From positions 2,731,006-2,795,005 of the forward strand of contig CAWHBD010000001.1 in NCBI GenBank assembly GCA_963827505.1: a DNA stretch of 64,000 nt, written 5' to 3'. The notes below the pieces were generated by a model that was given only the letters and a program-made list of their open reading frames with translations, searched no databases and was not told the origin of the DNA. The stretch is from an uncultured Candidatus Rokubacteria bacterium (GTDB lineage Bacteria > Methylomirabilota > Methylomirabilia > Rokubacteriales > CSP1-6). The translations under genes and the position numbers were made by a program. Within the stretch, counting starts at the first letter, position 1; the number at the start of each line of letters is the position of its first letter. Below are positions 9,119 through 63,689 of the stretch, one piece after another.

Positions 9119-9513
9119 CGCAGTCCTCGCTCCTTCATCAACGCCGACATCCGCTCCCAGGCTCCGCTCAGGACATCGTCCAGCGCGGCCTCGGCCCGAT
9201 GAGCGGCGATCGTGGCCGACACCCGGTCCCGCGTCGAGACCGCCTGCTCGGCCCGGCGACGGGCCCCGGCTGCTGCCGCGCCCAGCGTGTGCTGCGCCTG
9301 GGCCAACGCGGCGAGCACCGATTGCGCGCTGTCGAGCTGGGGGGCCAGCGCCTCCGGCCGGGCGGCCGGCTCGGCCAGTGCCAGGGTGGGCCGAGTGGGC
9401 GGCGCCGTGATCGAAGTCGCCAGCACGACCCCGGGGCGCCACAGCGCCACGGAGGGCGAGATCTCTATGCCGCGACGGGCGAGGTCGAGCGACCGGTGAC
9501 GCGGGGTCTTCAT
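9115..9513 (-). CDS. Hypothetical Ala-rich, probably helical protein (132 aa)
   Basis: ATG just downstream of a sigma-54 promoter; translationally coupled to the next ORF. Confidence 0.55.
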   Translation of the reverse strand: MKTPRHRSLDLARRGIEISPSVALWRPGVVLATSITAPPTRPTLALAEPAARPEALAPQLDSAQSVLAALAQAQHTLGAAAAGARRRAEQAVSTRDRVSATIAAHRAEAALDDVLSGAWERMSALMKERGLR

Positions 9514-9528
9514 GGTAAAGCAGTCATG

Positions 9529-9543
9529 GCAACGAGAGTGCCA
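9529..9543 (-). promoter_or_regulatory. Sigma-54 (-24/-12) promoter
   Basis: TGGCAC-TCTCG-TTGC matches the TGGCAC-N5-TTGC consensus. Confidence 0.8.
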
Positions 9544-9606
9544 CGCCAGCGCTGCGCCAAGCCCGCGGAATTATGAGACTTGGTGGATCGGCAACTTAAC
9601 TAGAAT

Positions 9607-9642
9607 GGGAGGATCTCCCTGGTGGTCCCGGGAGAACCTCCC
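9607..9642. repeat. 13-bp inverted repeat (terminator or upstream activator site)
   Basis: GGGAGGATCTCCC-N10-GGGAGAACCTCCC, immediately after the activator stop codon. Confidence 0.55.
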
Positions 9643-9644
9643 TG

Positions 9645-11033
<1,389 letters not shown>

Positions 11034-52115: not shown

Positions 52116-52847
52116 TTGCCTACCTCCGAGGCGCTCAGTTCCGGGGTCCTCGAACTGATCCTGAACGCTGGACCGGTCGCGAAGTTCGTCCTCGCGGTCC
52201 TCCTGCTGTTCTCGATCGGGTCGTGGGCCCTCATTGTGGAGAAGTGGTGGCAGTTCCGGCGGGTCCGCCGCCAGACCCTGGCCTTCGTGAAGGTCTTCCG
52301 CGAGGGGCGCCGGCCCTCGGTCGTGCACGGCGCGGCGCGCAAGTTCCGCGACAGCCCCCTGGCCCAGATCTACGCGGCGGCCTACAGCGAGATCTCGGGC
52401 ATCCCCGATGTCGTGGACTCGGTGGTCGACGACGGCGACGAGGGGCTGCCCCAGGACCGGCTGGAGGCCGTGCACCGGGCCATGCGGCGCTCGGCCGGGC
52501 TGGAGATTGCCCAAATCGAGCGGTACCTGCCCTTCCTGGCCACTACGGCCAGCGCGACCCCGTTCATCGGGTTGTTCGGTACCGTGTGGGGCATCATGTC
52601 GTCCTTCCACGGCATCAGCAGCCAGGGGTCGGCCAGCCTGGCCGTCGTGGCGCCCGGCATCTCCGAGGCGCTGATCGCCACCGCGGCGGGCCTGGCCGCC
52701 GCCATCCCCGCCGTCATCGGCTACAACTACTTCCTCAATCGCGTGCGCCACTGGGCGACGGAGATGGACGGCTTCATCCTCGACCTGCTCAACGTGCTCA
52801 GCCGCCCCGTGGCGAAGCTGGCCCGGCCGACCAAAGATGGCGTTTAA
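52116..52847 (+). CDS. tolQ: TolQ (MotA/TolQ/ExbB)
   Basis: SATPFIGLFGTVWGIM, APGISEALIATAAGL. Confidence 0.92.
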   Translation: MPTSEALSSGVLELILNAGPVAKFVLAVLLLFSIGSWALIVEKWWQFRRVRRQTLAFVKVFREGRRPSVVHGAARKFRDSPLAQIYAAAYSEISGIPDVVDSVVDDGDEGLPQDRLEAVHRAMRRSAGLEIAQIERYLPFLATTASATPFIGLFGTVWGIMSSFHGISSQGSASLAVVAPGISEALIATAAGLAAAIPAVIGYNYFLNRVRHWATEMDGFILDLLNVLSRPVAKLARPTKDGV

Positions 52848-53268
52848 CCTCGGATCGTCGGAGGGCGGCGAGCGACGTCTGGGCTCGTCGCTGGCCGAGA
52901 TCAACATCATCCCGCTGGTCGACGTCGTCCTGGTCCTCCTGCTGATCTTCATGCTGACGGCGCCCATGATGTACCGCGGCATCGACGTGAACCTGCCGCG
53001 GGCCGCCGCCAAGCCGACCGCGGTGGAGGAGCGGATGGTCCTCACGGTCACCAAGGACCGGACGCTCTACCTCAACGACAAGCGGGTGGCGGCGGGCAGC
53101 CTCGACACCCAGCTGCGGGCCGCCATGCAGGGGAGGACGGACAAGACGCTCTACCTCAAGGCTGATGCCGGCCTGGCCTACGGAGCGGTCATCGAAACGA
53201 TGGACCAGGTGCGCCGGGCCGGTATCGAGCGCCTGGGCATGGTAACCGAGCCCACGCGGGAGCGCTGA
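52837..53268 (+). CDS. tolR: TolR (ExbD family)
   Basis: EINIIPLVDVVLVLLLIFMLTAP. Confidence 0.9.
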   Translation: MAFNLGSSEGGERRLGSSLAEINIIPLVDVVLVLLLIFMLTAPMMYRGIDVNLPRAAAKPTAVEERMVLTVTKDRTLYLNDKRVAAGSLDTQLRAAMQGRTDKTLYLKADAGLAYGAVIETMDQVRRAGIERLGMVTEPTRER

Positions 53269-53270
53269 GG

Positions 53271-54176
53271 GTGGGTGCCGCGGGCCTGTTGCTGCTCACC
53301 CCGCGTCTGCGACCCAAGACCGGCCCGGCGCTCCGGACGTCGCCGCCGCCCGTCACCGCGGCCGTGCTCTCGGCCATGCTCCACGGCGCGCTCGCGGTCG
53401 CGGTGCTGGTGGCCGCGAGTGCCTGGTCCCGCAGTCAGCCCAAGACCTACGTCGTGAATCTGGTCCCGGCGGTGGCCGCGGTTGGCTCGCCCCAGGGGCG
53501 CGCCGCCCAGCCCCCGCGCGTCGCGGAACCGACCCCACGCCCGCCTGAGCGCCCCGCCGAGCTGCCGGATCGGCCCGCCCCACGGCCGGCGCCCACTCCA
53601 CCGCCCGAGTTGCCGACACGGGCCCCCGAGCTGCCCGCGCGGCCGCCCGAGATGCCGCCACGGACGGCGGCGTCGTTGCCCGACCGGCCCCTGCCGCCCC
53701 GGCCGTCGGCCATGCCGCGGGCCGGCGAGAAAGAACTGCCGCCCGTGGCCAGCACCCCGACACCACCCGCCCCGACGCCTTCGGCCCCGACGACGGCCGC
53801 TGCCCGCCCCGAGCCGCCGCCGCCATCGCCGGCGCTGGGCCGGGCGTCGGGCTCCGCGCAGGGCGCGGGCGCCGTCACGCTGAACGCCTCCGACTTTCCG
53901 TTCGCCTGGTACCTGTCGGCGGTGCAGCGCAAGATCACCGAGCGCTGGGACGGCCGCGCGCTGCAGGGTCGCCAGCCCGTGGTGACCTTCGAGATCGCCC
54001 GTGATGGCCAGGTGTCGAACGTCGCGATCAAGGACAGCAGCGGCAACCGATACTACGACCTCACCGCGATGCGAGCGATCGCCGAGGCGGCACCATTCCC
54101 GAAGCTCCCGCCGGAATTCCCCGGCTCCGTGCTCCGCATCCACCTGGGCTTCAACTTCATGCAGGATCGAGGCTGA
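53271..54176 (+). CDS. tolA: TolA/TonB-family energy transducer
   Basis: TM with SAMLH, Pro-rich stalk, TonB_C-like C-terminus (SSGNRYYDLTAMRAI); position in the operon. Confidence 0.8.
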   Translation: MGAAGLLLLTPRLRPKTGPALRTSPPPVTAAVLSAMLHGALAVAVLVAASAWSRSQPKTYVVNLVPAVAAVGSPQGRAAQPPRVAEPTPRPPERPAELPDRPAPRPAPTPPPELPTRAPELPARPPEMPPRTAASLPDRPLPPRPSAMPRAGEKELPPVASTPTPPAPTPSAPTTAAARPEPPPPSPALGRASGSAQGAGAVTLNASDFPFAWYLSAVQRKITERWDGRALQGRQPVVTFEIARDGQVSNVAIKDSSGNRYYDLTAMRAIAEAAPFPKLPPEFPGSVLRIHLGFNFMQDRG

Positions 54177-54180
54177 CCCG

Positions 54181-55512
54181 ATGAGCATTCGACGCCAACT
54201 CGCGCTGATCCTCCTGGTCACCCTGGCCCTGCCCGGCATGTGGCCGGTGGCGCCGCCGCCGCCCGCTCGCGCCCAGGCCGTGGACGTGTTCCTCAACGTC
54301 ACCGGCGGCGGCGCCCGCAAGCTCAACATTGCCGTCCCGGAGTTCACGGTCACCACCGGCGCCGATCCCACCGGGATCGGCAAGCTGCTGTCGACAGTGG
54401 CCGGGGCCGACCTCACCTTCTCGGGCCTCTTCAGCGTCGTGGCCGCCGAGGGCGCCATCCCCGCCAACAATCCGGAGGCGTTGCGGCGCTCGTGGACGGA
54501 GTTCGCGGCGGCCGGTGCCCACGCCGGCGTGCACGGGCTGGCCGCGCTGCGCGGCGATCGGGCCGAGGTCGAGATGCGTCTGTACGACCTGACGACCCCC
54601 GATCATCGGCTGATCGGCACCAAGAAGTTCGAGCTGCCGGTCGCCCAGGCGCGGCGCCTCGGTCACAAGGTCGCCGACGAGGTCGTGCTGCAGTTCACCG
54701 GTGAGCCCGGCATCGCCGACACCAAGATCGCCTACGTGACCGGACCCCGGGGGGCGAAGGAGATCCTGATGGCCGACTACGACGGTGCCGGCATCACCTC
54801 GGTGACGAAGAACGGCTCGATCAATCTCTCGCCCGTGTGGAGTCCGGACGCGCGGTCGCTGGCGTTCACCTCCTACAAGCAGGGCTATCCAGACCTCTAC
54901 CGGGCGTTTCCGTTCGAGCGGCGCCCCGACCAGACGCTGGCTGCCTTCGTCGGCATCAACACCTCGCCCGCCTTCAGCCCCGACGGCAAGAGCCTGGCGA
55001 TGACCCTCAGCAAGGACGGCAATCCCGAGATCTACGTGCTCAACCTGGCCAGCGGCGTCATGCGGCGCCTCACGCGCCACGCCGGCATCGACACCGAGCC
55101 GAGCTGGGCACCGACCGGCCGTCAGATCGCGTTCATCTCCGACCGCTCCGGCACGCCCCACGTCTACGTGATGGATGCTGAGGGCGCCAACGTCCGCCAG
55201 CTCACGTCGGGCGGGTTCCACACCCAGCCGCGGTGGTCGCCGCGCGGTGACACGATCGCCTACACGCAGCGGGCGGGCGCCCACGATATCTGGGTCGTGG
55301 ACGTCGACGGCTCCAACCCCCGCCGGCTCACGAACGGCGGCGACAACCAGGGCCCGACGTGGGCTCCGAGCGGCCGCCATCTCGCGTTCCAGTCCAACCG
55401 TCTCGGTCGCTGGCAGATCTTCGCCGTGCTCGCCGACGGCACCGCGGCCGCACCCATCACGCGAGGCGCCACCGAGAGCACAAGTCCTTCGTGGTCCCCT
55501 CGCTTGCCGTGA
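54181..55512 (+). CDS. tolB: TolB
   Basis: N-domain followed by PD40 repeats (SPVWSPD, SPAFSPDG, EPSWAP). Confidence 0.92.
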   Translation: MSIRRQLALILLVTLALPGMWPVAPPPPARAQAVDVFLNVTGGGARKLNIAVPEFTVTTGADPTGIGKLLSTVAGADLTFSGLFSVVAAEGAIPANNPEALRRSWTEFAAAGAHAGVHGLAALRGDRAEVEMRLYDLTTPDHRLIGTKKFELPVAQARRLGHKVADEVVLQFTGEPGIADTKIAYVTGPRGAKEILMADYDGAGITSVTKNGSINLSPVWSPDARSLAFTSYKQGYPDLYRAFPFERRPDQTLAAFVGINTSPAFSPDGKSLAMTLSKDGNPEIYVLNLASGVMRRLTRHAGIDTEPSWAPTGRQIAFISDRSGTPHVYVMDAEGANVRQLTSGGFHTQPRWSPRGDTIAYTQRAGAHDIWVVDVDGSNPRRLTNGGDNQGPTWAPSGRHLAFQSNRLGRWQIFAVLADGTAAAPITRGATESTSPSWSPRLP

Positions 55513-55565
55513 TACGATTTCGCTGCTTCAGAGTGTTCAGGTGCCGGTGTCAACAAGGAGGCGAC

Positions 55566-56168
55566 ATGCTGTCAAGCCGCTGGATTCACGTCACGATGAC
55601 GTCGTTGCTGCTCTTCGGTGTAGTCCTGGCGGGTTGCGCGAAGCGGCCGGCGACCACCCAGGCATCGGCGCCCGCCCCCACCGCCGCCGCGGCGACGACG
55701 CCCGGGAGCGGGCCAGCCATGGCTCCGGCCCCGGCCGCCCCCTCGGGCGACGCAACCACGGCTCCGGCCACGGCGGCGCCGTCCACGGCGACGCCGGCGG
55801 CTCGTCCCCCCGTCGCGGAGTTCCGGTCGGTCCCCGAGCTGAAGGACGCGTTCTTCGACTTCGACAAGTACGACATCCGCCCGGCTGACGCCAAGGTGCT
55901 CGACGCCAACGCCACCTGGCTGAAGGCGAACGCGAACAACCTGGTCCTGATCGAGGGACACTGCGACGAGCGCGGCACCAACGAGTACAACCTCGCGCTC
56001 GGCGAGCGTCGCGCGAAGTCGACGATGAACTACCTCGTCTCCCAGGGCGTCCAGGCCAGCCGCATCACGATCATCAGCTACGGTGAAGAGCGGCCCACGT
56101 GCAGCGAGAAGACCGAAGAGTGCTGGGCCAAGAACCGCCGCGCCCACTTCCTCGTCAAGCCCCGCTAG
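55566..56168 (+). CDS. pal: Peptidoglycan-associated lipoprotein
   Basis: Lipobox LAGC, FFDFDK, IEGHCDERGTNEYNLALGERRA, NRRA. Confidence 0.95.
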   Translation: MLSSRWIHVTMTSLLLFGVVLAGCAKRPATTQASAPAPTAAAATTPGSGPAMAPAPAAPSGDATTAPATAAPSTATPAARPPVAEFRSVPELKDAFFDFDKYDIRPADAKVLDANATWLKANANNLVLIEGHCDERGTNEYNLALGERRAKSTMNYLVSQGVQASRITIISYGEERPTCSEKTEECWAKNRRAHFLVKPR

Positions 56169-56182
56169 GCACCGCTGAGTCG

Positions 56183-57181
56183 GTGACGAGGCGGTCGCGC
56201 GGCCGCCTCGTCGCCGGGTTGTCTGTCGTCGGGCTGGTCTTCCTCGCCGGATGTGCCAGTGTCGCCGACGTCACCGGCACCGCCACCCAGCAGGACCTCG
56301 TGGAGATGCGGGGTGAGATCGCGTCCGCGCGCCAGGCGGCCCAGCGTGCCCGCGCCGACGCGGAGAGCGCCGCCCAGCGCGCCGTCGACGTGCGGCTGCG
56401 CACACAAGGGGCGGAGAGCGAGCGTCAGCTGGCCACACTCACCCGCCGCCTCGACACGCTCGCCACCTCGGTCAGCGAGCTCGGTGCGCGCGTCGACGAG
56501 CTATCGGCTCGCGTGGATGCGCTGGGGCGGCAGGTGCGAAGCGGCGCGCCGGCTGGCCCCGCCGGCCCGGGCGGACCCGCCGCGCCCCGCACGGCAACGC
56601 CGCCCGGACCGCTGGGCGCACCATCCCCGGCGCCGGGCGCCGCGACGGCAACACCCGCGATACCGGTCGTGCCGGCGACCCCGGCACCGGCCGCGCCCGC
56701 GGCGCCCCCGGCCACGCCCCAGACGCCGACGGCGGGCGCGCGGCCGGCCACCAACGCGCTCCAGCCGCAAGACATCTATCAGGCGGCGTACATCGACTTC
56801 AGCAAGGGCAGTTACGCGCTCGCCATGGCCGGCTTCCGCGAGTTCCTGCGCCGCTTCCCCGATCACCCGCTGGCCGGCAACGCGCAGTATTGGATCGGCG
56901 AGGGCCACTTCAGCCTGGCCCGGGGCCACACCAACGCCGGCCAGGCCGACAAGGCGACGCAGGAGCTGGAGCAAGCGGTGCAGGAGTTCAGGAAGGTGCT
57001 GGCGAACTATCCCCGGGGCGAGAAGGCGCCGACCTCGCTCTACAAGGAAGCGCTGGCCTTGGTCGAGCTGAAGCAGCCGGCGCTGGCCCAGCAGCGGCTG
57101 GAGTACCTGATCGCCAGCTTCCCCCAGGCGGAGGAGACCCCGCTCGCGCGAGAGCGGCTGGCCGCGATCAAGGGCCGGTAG
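56183..57181 (+). CDS. cpoB: CpoB/YbgF (coiled coil, Pro/Ala linker, TPR)
   Basis: Lipobox LAGC, FLRRFPDHPLAGNAQYWIGE; last gene of tol-pal. Confidence 0.88.
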   Translation: MTRRSRGRLVAGLSVVGLVFLAGCASVADVTGTATQQDLVEMRGEIASARQAAQRARADAESAAQRAVDVRLRTQGAESERQLATLTRRLDTLATSVSELGARVDELSARVDALGRQVRSGAPAGPAGPGGPAAPRTATPPGPLGAPSPAPGAATATPAIPVVPATPAPAAPAAPPATPQTPTAGARPATNALQPQDIYQAAYIDFSKGSYALAMAGFREFLRRFPDHPLAGNAQYWIGEGHFSLARGHTNAGQADKATQELEQAVQEFRKVLANYPRGEKAPTSLYKEALALVELKQPALAQQRLEYLIASFPQAEETPLARERLAAIKGR

Positions 57182-57184
57182 CCG

Positions 57185-57670
57185 TCAGTCCTTGTCCAGC
57201 CCGAAGACCCAGACGACGGCGACGTCCTGCTCGGGCGTGGAGTAGACCATCACGGTGCCGCGAGGGTCATCGGTGCTGGCCGAGGTAACCAGCACGCCGG
57301 TCTCGAGCAGCGGCTGGCCCGGCGTCCACTGCCACACGCCGACCGACATCAGCAGCGCCGCCATCGCTCCCGCAAGTGCCCAGCGTGGACGGGCCACGCG
57401 CTGCCACCAGGACCGGGCGGGCGGCGCCGGCCGGGCGTGGCGCCGGTCCTCGATGCCACGCACGACACCCGGCCAGAACCCTGACCAGTCCGGCTCGACG
57501 GCGGCGACGGTACCCCGCAACAGCCCATGGAGACGGCGCAACTCGTCGGCCTCCCGCTGGCAACTCCCACAAGAAGCGAGGTGAGCGGCCGTCAAGCGCG
57601 CCGTCTCCTGGTCGAGAGCCCCGTCCAGGTATCCACCGATGCGTCGCCGGGTCCGGTAGCAGGTCAACAC
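57185..57670 (-). CDS. zf-HC2 (ZAS) anti-sigma factor-like protein
   Basis: YLDGAL..HLASCGSC, a TM helix and a short periplasmic tail. Confidence 0.8.
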   Translation of the reverse strand: MLTCYRTRRRIGGYLDGALDQETARLTAAHLASCGSCQREADELRRLHGLLRGTVAAVEPDWSGFWPGVVRGIEDRRHARPAPPARSWWQRVARPRWALAGAMAALLMSVGVWQWTPGQPLLETGVLVTSASTDDPRGTVMVYSTPEQDVAVVWVFGLDKD

Positions 57671-57714
57671 GTCCGTTGGACGGCGCCTCCCCCCCTCGTT
57701 ATTCTCACGGCTGG

Positions 57715-58341
57715 ATGATACCCGAACGTCCGGTTACCTTCGGCACCCCCGGGCTGGAGGGCGCCCTAGCCCAGCGCCCAGGGGCTCGGGCCGGGGTGGT
57801 CGTCTGCCACCCACATCCCCGGTACGGCGGAGACATGGACAGCCCCGTGGTGGTGACGGCCGCCGGCGCCTGCGGCCAGGCCGGCCTGGCGACCCTCCGA
57901 TTCAACTTCCGGGGTGTCGGCCGGTCGGCCGGGGCCTGGGATGAGGGCCGCGGAGAGCAGGACGACGTCCGCGCCGCCGTGGGACACCTCGCCGAGGTGC
58001 TGGGGCCCGCGGTCCCGGTGGCCCTGGCGGGCTATTCCTTCGGGGCCGCCATCGCCGCGCAGGTCGCGGCATCCGGAGCGGCGCTGGCCGGCCTGCTTCT
58101 CATCGCGCCGCCGCTGGCCAGGCGAGGCCTACCCGCCTGGCCGGCGGCCGTGCAGGGTCAGGTGCTGGTCGTGGCGGGCAGCGCCGACACCTACTGCCCA
58201 GCCCCGGCCCTGGCGGCGCTAGCCAAGGCGTGGCCGGCGGCCACCGTGACAGTGCTGGCCGGCGCGGACCACTTCTTCGTTGGCGGGCTCGAGCCACTCG
58301 ACGCGGCAGTCAGGGACTGGGCGGCGAAGGTGCCTCGATAG
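57715..58341 (+). CDS. Alpha/beta hydrolase (COG2945-like)
   Basis: CHPHPRYGGDMD, RFNFRGVG, GYSFG, ADHFF. Confidence 0.88.
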   Translation: MIPERPVTFGTPGLEGALAQRPGARAGVVVCHPHPRYGGDMDSPVVVTAAGACGQAGLATLRFNFRGVGRSAGAWDEGRGEQDDVRAAVGHLAEVLGPAVPVALAGYSFGAAIAAQVAASGAALAGLLLIAPPLARRGLPAWPAAVQGQVLVVAGSADTYCPAPALAALAKAWPAATVTVLAGADHFFVGGLEPLDAAVRDWAAKVPR

Positions 58342-58344
58342 CGG

Positions 58345-58944
58345 CTACACCCGGGGCAGGCGGTTGGGGGTCGCGGTCCCGGCCGAGAGGATGACCCGCA
58401 GCCCCTCCTCGACCGTGAGCCCCGTGAAGATCACGTCGCTGCGCGGCACCACCACCACGTCGCCCAGGTAGAGGTTGTTGGTCGGCACGAAAACCGTCAC
58501 CATCTCGCCCTTTCCCACCGGCGACTCCAGCGTCAGCTCGCTGGTGACGAAGGCGAAGGCCCACGTGCCCTCCCGGGGGTGCTGGACGAGGACGACGGCC
58601 TTGAACGATCCCCGCCGCTCCGGCGAGAACGAATCGATCAGCATCTTGATCGAGGGATAGAGCAGGCGGAAGACCGGCACCCGGTACAGGAGCTTGTCGC
58701 CGAACGAGAGCACCCGGCGCCCCACCACGTTGCGGGCCACGATGCCCATGAGCAGGATGATCGCGACGGCCGTCAGGAAACCGAGACCCCACCCCGCCAC
58801 CGGCCGGCCCAGCATGCGTCCGTAGATCGGCGCGAATCGGTCGTCGATCCAGCTCCAGAAGATCCACAGGATCCAGGAGGTGGCGATGGCCGGAAGCGTC
58901 ACGAAGATCCCGGCGATGAAGCGAACCTTCAGCCAGTTCTTCAT
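58345..58944 (-). CDS. DUF502 family membrane protein
   Basis: FIAGIFVTLP, VFVPTNN, LSAG. Confidence 0.85.
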   Translation of the reverse strand: MKNWLKVRFIAGIFVTLPAIATSWILWIFWSWIDDRFAPIYGRMLGRPVAGWGLGFLTAVAIILLMGIVARNVVGRRVLSFGDKLLYRVPVFRLLYPSIKMLIDSFSPERRGSFKAVVLVQHPREGTWAFAFVTSELTLESPVGKGEMVTVFVPTNNLYLGDVVVVPRSDVIFTGLTVEEGLRVILSAGTATPNRLPRV

Positions 58945-59125: not shown

Positions 59126-60727
59126 TCAGATTGCCGACGCGTCGATCAGATCCGTGAGGTTGTTGACGTTGACCCAGCCGCCCCGCGTGTAGACGACGGT
59201 CACGGGCCGGCCCCTGGCCAGCACGCGGGCGAGCAGGTCGGTGAGTCGCGCGCTCGCCAGCGTGCCGTCGACGCGCGCCTCGGCGATGGCCTCGCGCAGC
59301 CAGGCGGCGCCGGTGCCACCCAGGTGGAGCAGGCCGATCCAGCCTCCGTGGCTGTCCTCGGCGCTCACGGCCTCGCCGACGGCGTCGAGCTGCACGGGCT
59401 CGAAGCTGAAGCGCCCAGCATCAGGCCGGCTGCCGCGCACGCGGTCGGCGACCGCCTGGCCGGCCAGGGCGCTGTCGACCGACAGCGTGATCCCCTCCCC
59501 CGCCTCCTCCAGCAGCGCCTGCACGATGTGCCGCTTGAGCACGATGTCGCCGAACGCGAGCAGCGTGCCGGGCCCCAGCGCGGTCTCGGCCAAGGCCAGC
59601 GAGTAGGCCTCGCTGGTCGTCGCGAAATCCGGGTTGTCGACGAAGCGGGCGCCGGCCATCTGCACGGCCTCGCCCCGGTAGCCGCGCACCACGGTGACCG
59701 CGCGGCAGCCGAAGTGGCCGAGGTCGTCGAGCAGCCGGGCCAGGATCGGCCGGCCCTGCACCTTGAGCATGGCCTTGGGCACCGCCGCCGTGAGGCCGCC
59801 GAAGTCGGCCCCGGCGCCGGCAGCCAGGATCACCGCCGACAGCGTGTCCTCGCGGGCGGCCGGCAGGTAGCGGCGCTCGGCCTGCTCCAGCTCCTCGTCA
59901 CCCTGCAGCCGGAACACCTCGGGCAGCGGCGCCACCTGGGGCTCGACGTCGATGAGCGACTGGTCGGTGTGCAGGCGCCGGGCCGTGGCCTGCATGGCCG
60001 AGATGGCCGCCCGCAGCAGGTGGTTGGCCCACACGACCACGCTGACGCCGCGGGCGCGGTACTCCGCCGTCGGCGTGCGCCAGTACTTGGTCGGCACCAG
60101 CACCACCGGCGCCCGGTTGGCCCAGGCGTCGAGGAACGCGATGATCTCGGCCGCGCTCGACTGGCGGCTGTGGATCAGGATCGCGTCGGCGCCGGCCAGG
60201 TGGTAGGCCTCCGCCCGCCGGATCGCCTCGGCCAGCCCCCAGCCGGCGATCAGCGCCTCGACGCGGGCCACGAGGACGAAGTCGGAGTCGGCCTGGCTGT
60301 CCTTGCCGGCCTTGATCTTGCCGCAGAACTCCTCGACGTCGGCCAGCGGCTGCTGCTCGGAGCGCAGGAACGAGTTCGTCTTCGGGAAGAGCTTGTCCTC
60401 GATGGTGACGCCGGCCACGCCGGCCTGCTCCAGCTTGCGCACGAGGCGGCGCATGTTGTTGAAGTTGCCGTAGCCGGTGTCGCCGTCGACCAGCACCGGC
60501 ACCGCGGCGGCGTCGGCCATGAAGCCGACGTGGTCCACCACCTGCGACCAGGACAGCTCGTTGTTGTCGCGGACGCCGAACGAGGCCGACGTCGTGAGGC
60601 CGCTGGCCCACACGGCCTCGAAGCCGGCCTCGGCGGCGATACGGGCCGAGATGCCGTCGTGAGCCTCCATCAGGAACGCGATCTCGGGCCGGCTCACCAG
60701 TCGCCGTAGCTGGGTCGTGCGCTTCAC
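59126..60727 (-). CDS. pepM: Phosphoenolpyruvate mutase fused to an NTP-transferase domain
   Basis: PepM signature [26 protein letters not shown]; C-domain VILAAG...PKAML. Confidence 0.93.
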
Positions 60728-60729
60728 CG

Positions 60730-61878
60730 TCAGCCTCCGAGCACGGCCGCCCGGAATCGATCCCGGAGAACGGCCGGCGTGTAGGGGATGCGCGGGACGT
60801 CCGCCTCCTCGGCGGTGACCTTGACGAGCACGAAGTGGGGACCGTCGGCGCCGAACGCGGCCCGCAGTGCCGACTCCAGCGCCCACGGCTCGGTCACCGC
60901 CACCGCGGTGGCGAAGCCGGCGGCGGCGGCCACACGGTCGAGGCGCACACCCCGCGAGAGCGAGGCCTGGTTGCCGGTGGAGCCGTAGACCTCGTTGTCG
61001 AAGACGAGGTGGACGAAGTTGGCGGGCCGCCGGTCGGCGATCATGGCCAGGATGCCGAGGTTCATCAGCAGATTGCCGTCGCCGTCGAAGACCACCGCGC
61101 GACGGTCGGGCCGCGTCAGGGCCAGGCCGAGGCCAATGGCCGGGGCCAGTCCCATCGAGCCGATCATGTAGAAGCTCTGGGGGCGGTCGGCCAGCGAGAA
61201 GCTCTCGCGGCAGATGTAGCCGTTGGCGTGAGCGATCGGATCGTCGCCGGCGGCCTTGAGCGCGATGCCGAGCGCGGTGAGCCGCGGCATCGTCGCCGGC
61301 GGCAGCAGCCCGTCGGGCGCGGGTGGCGCCGCCACCGGGGTGACGGCGGCGGCCGTGCGGGCGGCCGCACCGCCGTGAACGGCGCCCGTCTCGACGACCT
61401 TCGGCGGCACCAGGAGCGCGACGGGCGAGTGGCGCGCGTTCATCTCGGCGGCGGCCCAGGCCAGGTCAGCGTCGAGCGAGTCGACGGCGAGCACGCGATG
61501 GGGCACGCCCAGCAGCTCGAGAAGCCTCGGTGAGATCTCGCCGGTGAGGATGTGCTCGGGCGCGTCCTTGCCGCCGAAGCCGCGCCACGTCACGATCAGG
61601 AGCGCCGGGAGGCCGTACATGAGTGAGAGCGACGCCAGCGCGTTGAGGCTGGTGCCAAGCCCGGAGTTCTGCATCAGCACCACCGGCCGCCGGCCTCCGA
61701 ACCAGGCGCCGGCCGCCACCCCGACCGCGGCGTCCTCGCGCACGGCCGCCACGTAGGGGGCACGGGTGCCGCGCTCCAGCACGGCGATGAGGTCCTCGAT
61801 CAGCGAGCACGGCACCCCCGTGAAGAAGTCGAAGCCGTGGCGCTCGAGGCGGGCGGCGAAGTCGTGGCCGGAGATCAT
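60730..61878 (-). CDS. ppd: Phosphonopyruvate decarboxylase (fused alpha/beta, TPP-dependent)
   Basis: [35 protein letters not shown]...[11 protein letters not shown]; directly upstream of pepM. Confidence 0.85.
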
Positions 61879-61888
61879 CGCGGCCCGC

Positions 61889-62599
61889 TCAGGTCCGGGC
61901 GACGCGGCTGCCGCCCATCACGCGCAGGAAGTCGCCGAGGGCGGCGAAGCGCATGAACGGGTTCTGGCGCTTCTCGTCGCCGATCGTCGACGCCGCCCCG
62001 CCGTAGTTGTGGCCGGGGAAGAGGACGGTGTCGTCGGGCAGCGCGCCCAGACGCTGGGTGAGCGAGTAGTACATCTCGCTGGGATCGCTGCCCGGCAGGT
62101 CGGTGCGGCCGCACGAGCCGATGAACAGGGTGTCCCCCGAGATCAGCCGCCCGTCGACCAGGAAGCACTGCGAGCCCGGCGTGTGTCCAGGGGTGTGCAG
62201 GAAGGTCAGCCGCAGGCGACCAACCTCGAGCGTGTCGTGGTTGTCGACCTTCACGAGGTCGGAGCCGAGGCCGGGCAGGAACTCGCGCTCGGCCTTGTGC
62301 ACGTAGACCCGGGACGGCGCCCGGGCCAGCAGCTCCTCAACCCCGGGGATACGTCCCGGCATGCCCCACGAGGCCAGGCTACCCCCCACGTGGTCCTGGT
62401 GGGTGTGAGTCACCAGCGCCCCGATCAGCCTCATCCCGTCGGCGGCCACGGTGTCGACGATCGTGTCGATTTCCCAGGCGGGATCGACCACCACGCACTC
62501 ACGGGCGACGGGGTCTCCGACCAGGTAGACGAAGTTCTGCATGGGGCCCAGCTCGAGCTGCTTCAGGTAGATCGCGTCCGCGTCCGGCACGGGGGTCAT
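61889..62599 (-). CDS. MBL-fold hydrolase (glyoxalase II-like)
   Basis: THTHQDH, TPGHTPGS, SGDTLF, GRTDL, PGH. Confidence 0.85.
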   Translation of the reverse strand: MTPVPDADAIYLKQLELGPMQNFVYLVGDPVARECVVVDPAWEIDTIVDTVAADGMRLIGALVTHTHQDHVGGSLASWGMPGRIPGVEELLARAPSRVYVHKAEREFLPGLGSDLVKVDNHDTLEVGRLRLTFLHTPGHTPGSQCFLVDGRLISGDTLFIGSCGRTDLPGSDPSEMYYSLTQRLGALPDDTVLFPGHNYGGAASTIGDEKRQNPFMRFAALGDFLRVMGGSRVART

Positions 62600-62690: not shown

Positions 62691-63689
62691 ATGTCCACGC
62701 CGATCAGCGGACAGCAAGCGGCCCGGCGAGTGTCCTACCAGCTCGAGACGCTGTGGGACTATGACTACGAGCCGACGCACGCGGAGCTCGACACCCTGTA
62801 CGAGACCGCCAAGAAGAACCAGTGGAACGGCTCCACCGCCATCGACTGGAGCCGGCCGATCGGCGCCGAGGGCCCGGTGTTGAACGTGCAGGTCGCCTTC
62901 GCCGGCACCAACTTCTTCAGCCGACTCACCCCCGAAGAGCAGAAGGAGGTCGAGGTCCGGGTGTCGGCCTGGCGGCTCAGCCAGTTCCTGCACGGCGAGC
63001 AGGGGGCGCTGGTGGTGTGCGGCCAGCTCGTCAACTCGATCCCCGAGCTGGACGCCAAGCTCTATGCCTCCACCCAGGTCGTGGACGAGGGGCGCCACGT
63101 CGAGGTCTTCGAGCGCTACGTCAAGAAGCTGCACGGCATCTACCCGGTCGACCCGCTGCTCAAGGCCGTGCTCGACGAGATCCTGGCCACGAACATGTGG
63201 GAGCTGAAGCTGCTGGGCATGCAGATGATCGTCGAGGGGCTCGCCATCGCCGCCTTCAACGTGATGCGCCGGCAGACGGCCGACCCCACCCTGGCCCAGC
63301 TCCTCGACTACGTGATGCAGGACGAGGGGCGCCACGTGAACTTCGGCTACTTCGCGCTGCGCCGCTCCATCCCCAACATGGAGGCGGCCAAGCGCGAGTA
63401 CCTCGAGGACTTCACCTTCAAGGTGTGCGACCTCATGTACGCGCGGGATGAGCGCACCGGCTTCCGCTCGATCCAGGACGTGTGGAACGAGATGGGCTGG
63501 GACGGCGAGAAGATCTGGCGGGACACCGTGAAGACCTCGCAAACCACGAAGGCGTTCAACAGCTTCCTGTTCCAGGAGAACCTGATGCCCCGCCTGGTCC
63601 GGCTGGGGATGATCTCCGAGCGGATCGCGCCTCGCTACCGTGAGATCGGCCTACTCCAGAGCCAGGAAGGCGTAGCCAACCGCCCGTAG
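62691..63689 (+). CDS. Ferritin-like diiron-carboxylate protein (AurF/desaturase-like)
   Basis: FLHGEQGAL, DEGRHVE, IVEGLA, DEGRHVNFG: two EXXH motifs. Confidence 0.82.
   Translation: MSTPISGQQAARRVSYQLETLWDYDYEPTHAELDTLYETAKKNQWNGSTAIDWSRPIGAEGPVLNVQVAFAGTNFFSRLTPEEQKEVEVRVSAWRLSQFLHGEQGALVVCGQLVNSIPELDAKLYASTQVVDEGRHVEVFERYVKKLHGIYPVDPLLKAVLDEILATNMWELKLLGMQMIVEGLAIAAFNVMRRQTADPTLAQLLDYVMQDEGRHVNFGYFALRRSIPNMEAAKREYLEDFTFKVCDLMYARDERTGFRSIQDVWNEMGWDGEKIWRDTVKTSQTTKAFNSFLFQENLMPRLVRLGMISERIAPRYREIGLLQSQEGVANRP

Follow-up and report, generated by a model that had tools for sequence, protein, structure and literature searches.

A two-gene phosphonate starter module in a Rokubacteria genome and its fused LicC/PntC-fold domain, a candidate ligand-binding domain other than PntC

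The gene pepM-NT encodes a phosphoenolpyruvate (PEP) mutase joined to a C-terminal nucleotidyltransferase-like (NT) domain of the NTP_transf_3 family. It lies in a 64,000-nucleotide stretch of DNA from an uncultured Candidatus Rokubacteria bacterium (C1:2731006-2795005, G+C 70%; the whole stretch is called the window below), whose genome of 7.0 Mb is assembled in four contigs. It is well supported that pepM-NT and the adjacent gene ppd, for phosphonopyruvate decarboxylase, form a working two-gene starter module for the carbon-phosphorus bond, and likewise that the fused C-domain represents a subfamily of its own within the LicC/PntC fold, and a conserved one. The evidence supports more moderately that this domain is not the 2-aminoethylphosphonate (AEP) cytidylyltransferase of the pathway and that a distant transaminase completes the synthesis of AEP. 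We lean towards a reading in which the module carries a fused, conserved, ligand-binding domain other than PntC, with the later AEP and lipid steps encoded elsewhere in the genome.

The fused domain departs from PntC at its catalytic sites

We aligned 85 fused domains, comprising 61 from other phyla, 20 from the Rokubacteria clade to which pepM-NT belongs (clade 1) and 4 carried by a PepM-like variant in sister Rokubacteria. The alignment also held 27 stand-alone transferases from the fusion loci, four sister-genome loci and the genome itself. The fusion sample consisted of 80 full-length fusion loci obtained from a scan of species-representative genomes, and it spans Rokubacteria, Nitrospirales, Calothrix, Bacteriovorax, Alphaproteobacteria, Bacillales, Ignavibacteria and others. 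The spacing from LAA to PK is identical in all aligned fused and stand-alone sequences, and the alignment of the glycine loop is therefore unambiguous. When aligned to LicC and Tde-PntC, the D of GAGAD in pepM-NT falls on the arginine of GxG(T/S)R, and the two Asn of WVNVN fall on LicC Glu216 and Asp218. This agrees with the initial annotation, which had pointed to GAGADF at the GxGxR position and to a non-acidic site in place of W-x-E/D-x-D.

Table 1 Residues at five PntC/LicC sites in stand-alone and PepM-fused domains.
Site	Stand-alone	Fused, other phyla	Fused, Rokubacteria clade
PntC Arg15	Arg 27/27	Arg 0/61 (Glu 40, Asp 5, Lys 5)	Asp/Glu 17/20
PntC Glu104 / LicC Asp105	Asp/Glu 23/27	Tyr 58, Phe 3 of 61	Phe 20/20
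PntC Lys153	Lys 27/27	Lys 8/61	Asp/Glu 17/20
LicC Glu216	Glu 27/27	Asp 61/61	Asn 20/20
LicC Asp218	Asp 27/27	Asp 31, Asn 30	Asn 20/20

The sites that differ are central to the chemistry of PntC (Table 1). The first five residues of GxG(T/S)R build the pyrophosphate site, and the single replacements R15A, K25A and K153A each lower the activity of Tde-PntC to <10% (PMC6697681). The Glu104/Asp105 site, which binds the substrate amine, is Tyr or Phe in 85/85 fused domains and Phe in pepM-NT, and the second catalytic lysine, PntC Lys153, is replaced by Glu in pepM-NT. The PK lysine (PntC Lys25; VPKAML in pepM-NT) is present in all but one of the aligned sequences, and the equivalent of the Mg ligand LicC Asp107 (FGD in pepM-NT) is kept in all of them. 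Of seven features of sequence or fold listed for a competent PntC/LicC enzyme, the C-domain of pepM-NT thus lacks four; the fold, Lys25 and one metal ligand are present. The scaffold of the nucleotide site, made up of LAA-G, PK, DN, GD and W, is invariant across phyla in the fused domains.

The C-domain is modeled with high confidence by AlphaFold2 (AF2), with a mean predicted local distance difference test score (pLDDT) of 95.4. The top Foldseek matches of this model are 1JYK (E 2e-15, template modeling (TM) scores 0.76/0.81) and 6PD2 (TM 0.76). Judged by its residues, the fused domain has probably lost PntC activity. The loss of Arg15 and Glu104 is a trait of all sampled PepM-fused PF12804 domains and extends beyond pepM-NT alone. 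The Rokubacteria clade deviates furthest, with Asn in place of both remaining acidic Mg ligands.

The unusual motifs are conserved. G-x-G-x-[DE]-F and W-V-N-V-N recur in nearly all of the 120 homologs listed, whose C-domains share 68-100% identity with that of pepM-NT. The ratio of nonsynonymous to synonymous substitution rates (dN/dS) against 18 Rokubacteria orthologs ranges from 0.08 to 0.44 in the NT domain and from 0.07 to 0.28 in the PepM domain, the former exceeding the latter in 18/18 comparisons. The C-domain is slightly more relaxed than the mutase domain, yet it is clearly under purifying selection. In a phylogenetic tree the clade is monophyletic with a support of 100%, and the stand-alone enzymes lie on one side of a branch with a weak support of 62. 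The transferase had been described at first as degenerate. The deviations in its motifs are real, but they do not reflect decay, because they are conserved within the clade, the dN/dS is low and the LicC/PntC fold is confidently predicted.

Active transferase or inert appendage

The main rival explanation holds that the fused domain is an active, non-canonical transferase. It would cytidylylate AEP or another phosphonate by means of the PK lysine, Asp108 and a metal held by Asn and Asp, and would link the formation of the C-P bond with activation, in the manner of Fom1. In its favor, the fold is kept together with the LAA-G loop, the PK lysine and the equivalent of LicC Asp107, purifying selection is strong, a second transferase is missing from the vicinity of many fusion loci, and the literature regards the fusions as PntC (PMC6697681, PMC8942020). 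Nevertheless, the equivalents of Arg15, Lys153 and Glu104 are gone, being acidic or aromatic in the clade, and the ligands Glu216 and Asp218 are both Asn. Alanine mutants of Arg15 or Lys153 alone lose >90% of PntC activity. Moreover, a canonical paralog exists in the genome itself and in 21 other fusion loci (a stand-alone NT within 10 kb in 21/62 fusion loci outside the clade). We consider an active transferase unlikely, though it deserves serious attention.

It is more doubtful still that the domain is a catalytically and ligand-inert appendage, kept to stabilize or assemble the PEP mutase oligomer. The loss of catalytic residues would be expected of such an appendage, as would a constraint weaker than that on PepM in every one of the comparisons above. 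A mere scaffold, however, has no need of the LAA-G, PK, DN, GD and W residues that are invariant across phyla. The AF2 model of the full-length monomer (pTM, the predicted TM score, 0.59), in which two confident domains are joined by a linker at residues 289-294 with a pLDDT <50, also has no confident interdomain interface.

The genomic distribution of the fusion bears on what the domain serves. No Ppd is encoded within 10 kb in 22/62 fusion loci outside the clade. At the one of these loci that was annotated, from Nitrospirales (L088:9977-11611), pepM-NT is an orphan among genes for an M48 peptidase, MarR, an Fe-S protein, SDR and JmjC, and no Ppd, transaminase or second transferase is found within 10 kb at this or other Nitrospirales loci (L055, L063-L065, L070 and others). 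The loci without Ppd and the unrelated neighbors at L088 indicate that the domain travels with PepM and not with AEP chemistry. This distribution fits a mutase-linked role better than AEP activation, short of proof.

The starter module and its resident neighbors

Gene calls and family scores agree with the initial annotation of a run of three genes, mbl, ppd and pepM-NT, on the minus strand with the PepM signature EDKxxxxxNS (Table 2). The listed open reading frame 59126-60886 is over-extended. The start of pepM-NT is a GTG at 60727, which lies 2 nt past the stop of ppd and 8 nt past a GGAGG, and the resulting 533-aa product is 100% identical to a public protein (P0004). By their stop-to-start spacing, ppd and pepM-NT are translationally coupled. 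The product of pepM-NT scores 371.7 bits against the equivalog family TIGR02320, above the cut-off of 319.55, and 49.5 bits against PF12804, above the gathering score of 27 (residues 351-466 of P0001). With PF12804 on the same polypeptide as a motif-positive PEP mutase (Ppm), it belongs to the Ppm-PF12804 fusion class.

The partner that consumes phosphonopyruvate is also present. The best-scoring family for ppd is TIGR03297, at 302.1 bits just below the cut-off of 312.5, and the next-best, sulfopyruvate decarboxylase beta, reaches 164 bits against a cut-off of 221.5. Ppd is found in 16/18 clade-1 loci. As noted at the outset of this work, the remaining pathway genes are not adjacent: no transaminase, reductase or transferase occurs within ~10 kb on either side of the module.

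Table 2 Features of the pepM-NT locus, in window coordinates.
Feature	Position	Strand	Remarks
pepM-NT (pepM-NTP_transf_3 fusion)	59126-60727	minus	533 aa + stop; TIGR02320, PF13714, PF12804
PEP mutase domain	59852-60727	minus	E 1.7e-118 to Mytilus PepM 1M1B
EDKxxxxxNS signature of PepM	60371-60400, residues 110-119	minus	active-site signature present
LicC/PntC-fold C-domain of pepM-NT	59129-59839	minus	AF2 model, Foldseek, site alignment, dN/dS
LAAGAGADF of C-domain	59801-59827	minus	
PK motif (VPKAML) of C-domain	59765-59782	minus	
FGD of C-domain	59540-59557	minus	
WVNVNN of C-domain	59147-59176	minus	
ppd, phosphonopyruvate decarboxylase	60730-61878	minus	TIGR03297; both thiamine pyrophosphate domains
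mbl, ETHE1/GloB-like metallo-beta-lactamase (MBL)-fold gene	61889-62599	minus	PF00753; co-directional with ppd
DUF502 membrane protein	58345-58944	minus	PF04367; downstream of insertion
AurF / R2-like diiron oxygenase	62691-63689	plus	PF11583; divergent from mbl, 91-bp spacer
Tol-Pal cluster	52116-57181		just downstream; tolQ, tolR, tolA, tolB, YbgF/CpoB-like TPR gene; pal position unannotated
zf-HC2 anti-sigma gene	57188-57733	minus	beyond Tol-Pal cluster; SglT-like alpha/beta hydrolase also there

The gene mbl, initially counted as a member of the unit, turned out to be a resident of the site. The closest solved structures to its product are 9RHQ, 4YSB and 4CHL, which place it among ETHE1/GloB-like proteins. 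A single-copy ortholog is found in 114/151 genomes of the phylum, with or without PepM, at 54-97% identity (73-97% inside its own order). The phylum tallies given here and below, for MBL, the transaminase and the locus C oxygenase, include the unpublished genomes G029, G047, G058 and G101, and no claim depends solely on them. In the PepM-free genome G012, the genes at the same site run in the order MBL, DUF502, hydrolase, Tol-Pal, and neither ppd nor pepM stands between MBL and DUF502. Because relatives that have no PepM also carry mbl and DUF502, only ppd and pepM-NT make up the unit, an insertion between these two resident genes next to the Tol-Pal cluster. Genome G066, of the same genus, has MBL, Ppd and DUF502 with ~60 bp in place of pepM-NT (L133:8213-10750), and this locus seems to be what is left of a decaying module.

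It is very improbable, and largely refuted by distribution, that mbl-ppd-pepM forms a complete non-standard pathway by itself, with a novel phosphonate finished by the MBL enzyme and perhaps the AurF-like oxygenase: mbl does share its strand with ppd, 10 nt upstream of it, and the AurF-like gene is divergently placed, but MBL is kept regardless of PepM, the AurF-like gene is in 5/18 clade-1 loci and also in G066 without pepM-NT, and no homolog of MBL, DUF502 or AurF occurs near the 62 fusion loci outside the clade. On this distribution MBL is rejected as a pathway enzyme, and a tailoring role of the AurF-like oxygenase, whose presence varies, is unsupported.

Distant candidate genes for the later steps

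The genome search for aepZ/phnW that the initial annotation proposed returned an AEP transaminase gene at C1:385247-386305, whose product scores 383.6 bits on TIGR03301, over the NCBIfam cut-off. Its ortholog directly adjoins pepM-NT in six other cases (L040, L042, G064, G093, G023 and G133), and it is found in 16/17 of the genomes whose clade-1 fusion is full-length. The only member of the genus without it is G066 (91% complete), which is also without pepM-NT. A gene for a PhnA-like phosphonoacetate hydrolase (C1:386323-387532; L009:10317-11530) lies directly upstream of the transaminase gene and is split in two frames near C1:386909-386919 (319 + 268 bits), as a pseudogene or through an assembly indel. 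A search of the genome for other genes of AEP catabolism gave no PhnX, and any PhnY candidates stayed below the cut-off. The marker completeness is 62.9% for the 7.0-Mb, four-contig assembly, which suggests many indel errors in this long-read assembly.

A second distant site, locus C (C1:1070486-1073581; L127:9486-12581), encodes a canonical LicC/PntC-type transferase, a CDP-alcohol (CDP-OH) phosphatidyltransferase and a HalD-like 2-oxoglutarate (2OG) oxygenase. It is flanked by squalene-hopene cyclase, MlaEFDC, inositol-3-phosphate synthase and an HpnN-like MMPL transporter. Locus C may be a locus for a phosphonate- or inositol-bearing lipid head group tied to hopanoids. The 2OG oxygenase and the NT of locus C are reciprocal best matches of genes in the pepM cluster of Calothrix sp. 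HK-06 (L056), where the order is CDP-OH transferase, 2OG oxygenase, PntC, PepM-NT, Ppd, AEP transaminase. The CDP-OH transferase of locus C matches that cluster weakly, at ~29 bits, and is tied with two other loci. In two other Methylomirabilota genomes, G014 and G105, orthologs of locus C are contiguous with a split Ppd and a transaminase.

Compared with LicC and PntC, the transferase of locus C (C1:1070486-1071496) reaches 40.7 and 39.2 bits, as opposed to 30.7 and 28.6 with two IPCT structures, and is far below every NCBIfam cut-off. The search for pntC has yielded a canonical LicC/PntC-type enzyme, which may act on AEP or on inositol phosphate. As the genome has no LicD, a lipid acceptor is likelier than a glycan. 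Two copies of Fe-ADH are present in the genome, both distant and neither linked to the module. It had been proposed at first that the product is finished by genes elsewhere or by a non-standard route. The first part is supported by the candidate late genes described here. The second is unneeded, since the dispersed genes suffice to put together a standard AEP route.

Several related clusters were seen in the course of this survey. The Calothrix cluster (L056:6087-17668) is flanked by two B12-radical-SAM genes, a YdjC-like gene and a GT21 glycosyltransferase. These resemble the hopanoid side-chain genes HpnJ, HpnK and HpnI, a hopanoid association as in Methylomirabilota. The run in G105 and G014 (L136:1751-11060 and L135:7331-14112) consists of HpnH, HpnG, two open reading frames without a Pfam match, a split alpha/beta Ppd-like decarboxylase, the CDP-OH transferase, a PntC-like NT, the AEP transaminase, the 2OG oxygenase and MlaC. 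No PepM was detected in this run with pepM-NT as the query, the genome-wide check covering G014 only.

In sister Rokubacteria genera (L129-L132) a PepM-like protein with EDNxFPKxCS replacing EDKxxxxxNS is fused to an NT domain with GSGKS and WLEID. This variant scores 274.6 bits on TIGR02320, below cut-off, and motif filters would overlook it. Within the hopanoid/Mla locus, the variant and a Ppd-like gene with it (e.g. L130:7700-9343 and 9400-10557) lie precisely between MlaC and the canonical transferase.

A proposed role for the fused domain

A possible pathway is proposed as follows. PepM would rearrange PEP to phosphonopyruvate, which Ppd would convert to phosphonoacetaldehyde. AEP would then be made by the transaminase at C1:385247-386305. 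The transferase and the CDP-alcohol phosphatidyltransferase of locus C may activate AEP and move it onto a lipid, with the 2OG oxygenase also taking part, and from this gene content a lipid is the probable end product. The role of the C-domain could plausibly be non-catalytic or regulatory. By analogy with other transferase-fold proteins, this role may be ligand sensing or regulation, in which the C-domain would sense cytidine triphosphate (CTP) or a cytidine monophosphate (CMP)-phosphonate and tune the PEP mutase. More tentatively, we suggest that the commonest PepM-fused domain across bacteria could be a pseudo-enzyme sensor of CTP or CMP-phosphonate that exerts feedback on the first committed step, and that the Rokubacteria clade, with GAGAD and WVNVN, could be its most stripped-down form. 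We regard this broader proposal as possible and not as our expectation.

A number of observations weigh against a starter module with a domain other than PntC. The PK lysine and one Mg-binding Asp are retained in the fused domain, and in this superfamily Mg can also be bound by Asn, as in GlmU. An Arg two residues earlier (S-R-G) is kept in the wider fused family, a possible substitute for the missing arginine, and Lys occupies the Arg15 position in 5/61 fused domains. R15A PntC retains some activity (PMC6697681). In 41/62 fusion loci outside clade 1 no separate NT lies within 10 kb, and in these lineages the fused domain might be the sole transferase. In the monomer model, where the linker is disordered, the PepM and NT domains have no fixed interface; the model speaks neither for nor against the sensor proposal. 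The transaminase also occurs in ~24 PepM-free genomes and stands beside the PhnA-like gene, so it may be catabolic or dual in function. The 2OG oxygenase of locus C is likewise found in ~25 PepM-free genomes. Inositol-phosphate synthase adjoins locus C, and the NT of this locus may activate inositol phosphate and not AEP.

This matters because the fused domain is present on about one third of PEP mutases, and published work takes the fusions as a sign that nucleotidyl activation is dominant in phosphonate biosynthesis. If the fused domain is not PntC, that inference of dominance needs revision and the role of the commonest Ppm fusion is reopened. In either case, the finding marks the 'minimal' phosphonate modules of Rokubacteria as starter cassettes of a dispersed AEP route, probably toward a lipid, and not as novel pathways.

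Comparison with known systems

Ppm-PF12804 is the commonest fused form of PEP mutase, accounting for 33% of Ppm enzymes, and a separate transferase is often co-encoded (Rice et al. 2019, PMC6697681). We found no functional study of the Ppm-fused PF12804 domain in the open literature; the nearest are Rice 2019 (PMC6697681) and Li & Horsman 2022 (PMC8942020), in which the fused domain is called PntC without a look at its catalytic residues. The protein pepM-NT shares the architecture of these fusions, a PepM with EDKxxxxxNS followed by a C-terminal MobA-like NTP_transf_3 domain. The fused domains aligned here are without Arg15, Glu104 and, in most cases, Lys153, and the clade of pepM-NT adds Asn-x-Asn in place of the acidic pair.

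The AEP phosphonolipid-type clusters named 'Burkholderiales_CDP-OH' contain a Ppm-NT fusion, Ppd, an AEP transaminase, a second PntC, a 2OG oxygenase and phospholipid genes (Li & Horsman 2022, PMC8942020). The same gene set is present in the genome studied here, in Calothrix (L056) and in the Methylomirabilota G014 and G105. In the present genome, however, it is spread over three loci up to 2.4 Mb apart, and the late genes are in a neighborhood of hopanoid, Mla and inositol-phosphate synthase genes.

With Tde-PntC (6PD1/6PD2) and S. pneumoniae LicC (1JYK/1JYL), the C-domain of pepM-NT has in common the fold (TM 0.76-0.81), the LAA-G loop, the PK lysine and the Asp107-equivalent ligand. Its sequence identity to them is 16-19%, and it has Asp for the Arg of GxG(T/S)R, Phe for Glu104/Asp105, Glu for Lys153 and Asn for Glu216 and Asp218.

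Non-catalytic paralogs of the nucleotidyltransferase fold are known to regulate an active partner, as GMPPA does with GMPPB (7D72), and as do GalF and the large subunits of ADP-glucose pyrophosphorylase. The C-domain of pepM-NT resembles them: it keeps the fold and the ligand site, lacks the basic residues needed for catalysis and exists alongside an active paralog. Those proteins regulate a homologous transferase, whereas the domain studied here is fused to an unrelated PEP mutase, and its ligand and its regulatory action are putative.

Fom1 of fosfomycin biosynthesis is also a fusion, of a cytidylyltransferase (CyTase) with PepM, in which the transferase acts later in the same pathway (PMC6697681). 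The transferase of Fom1 is N-terminal, has the unrelated PF01467 fold and is experimentally active, while the domain of pepM-NT is C-terminal.

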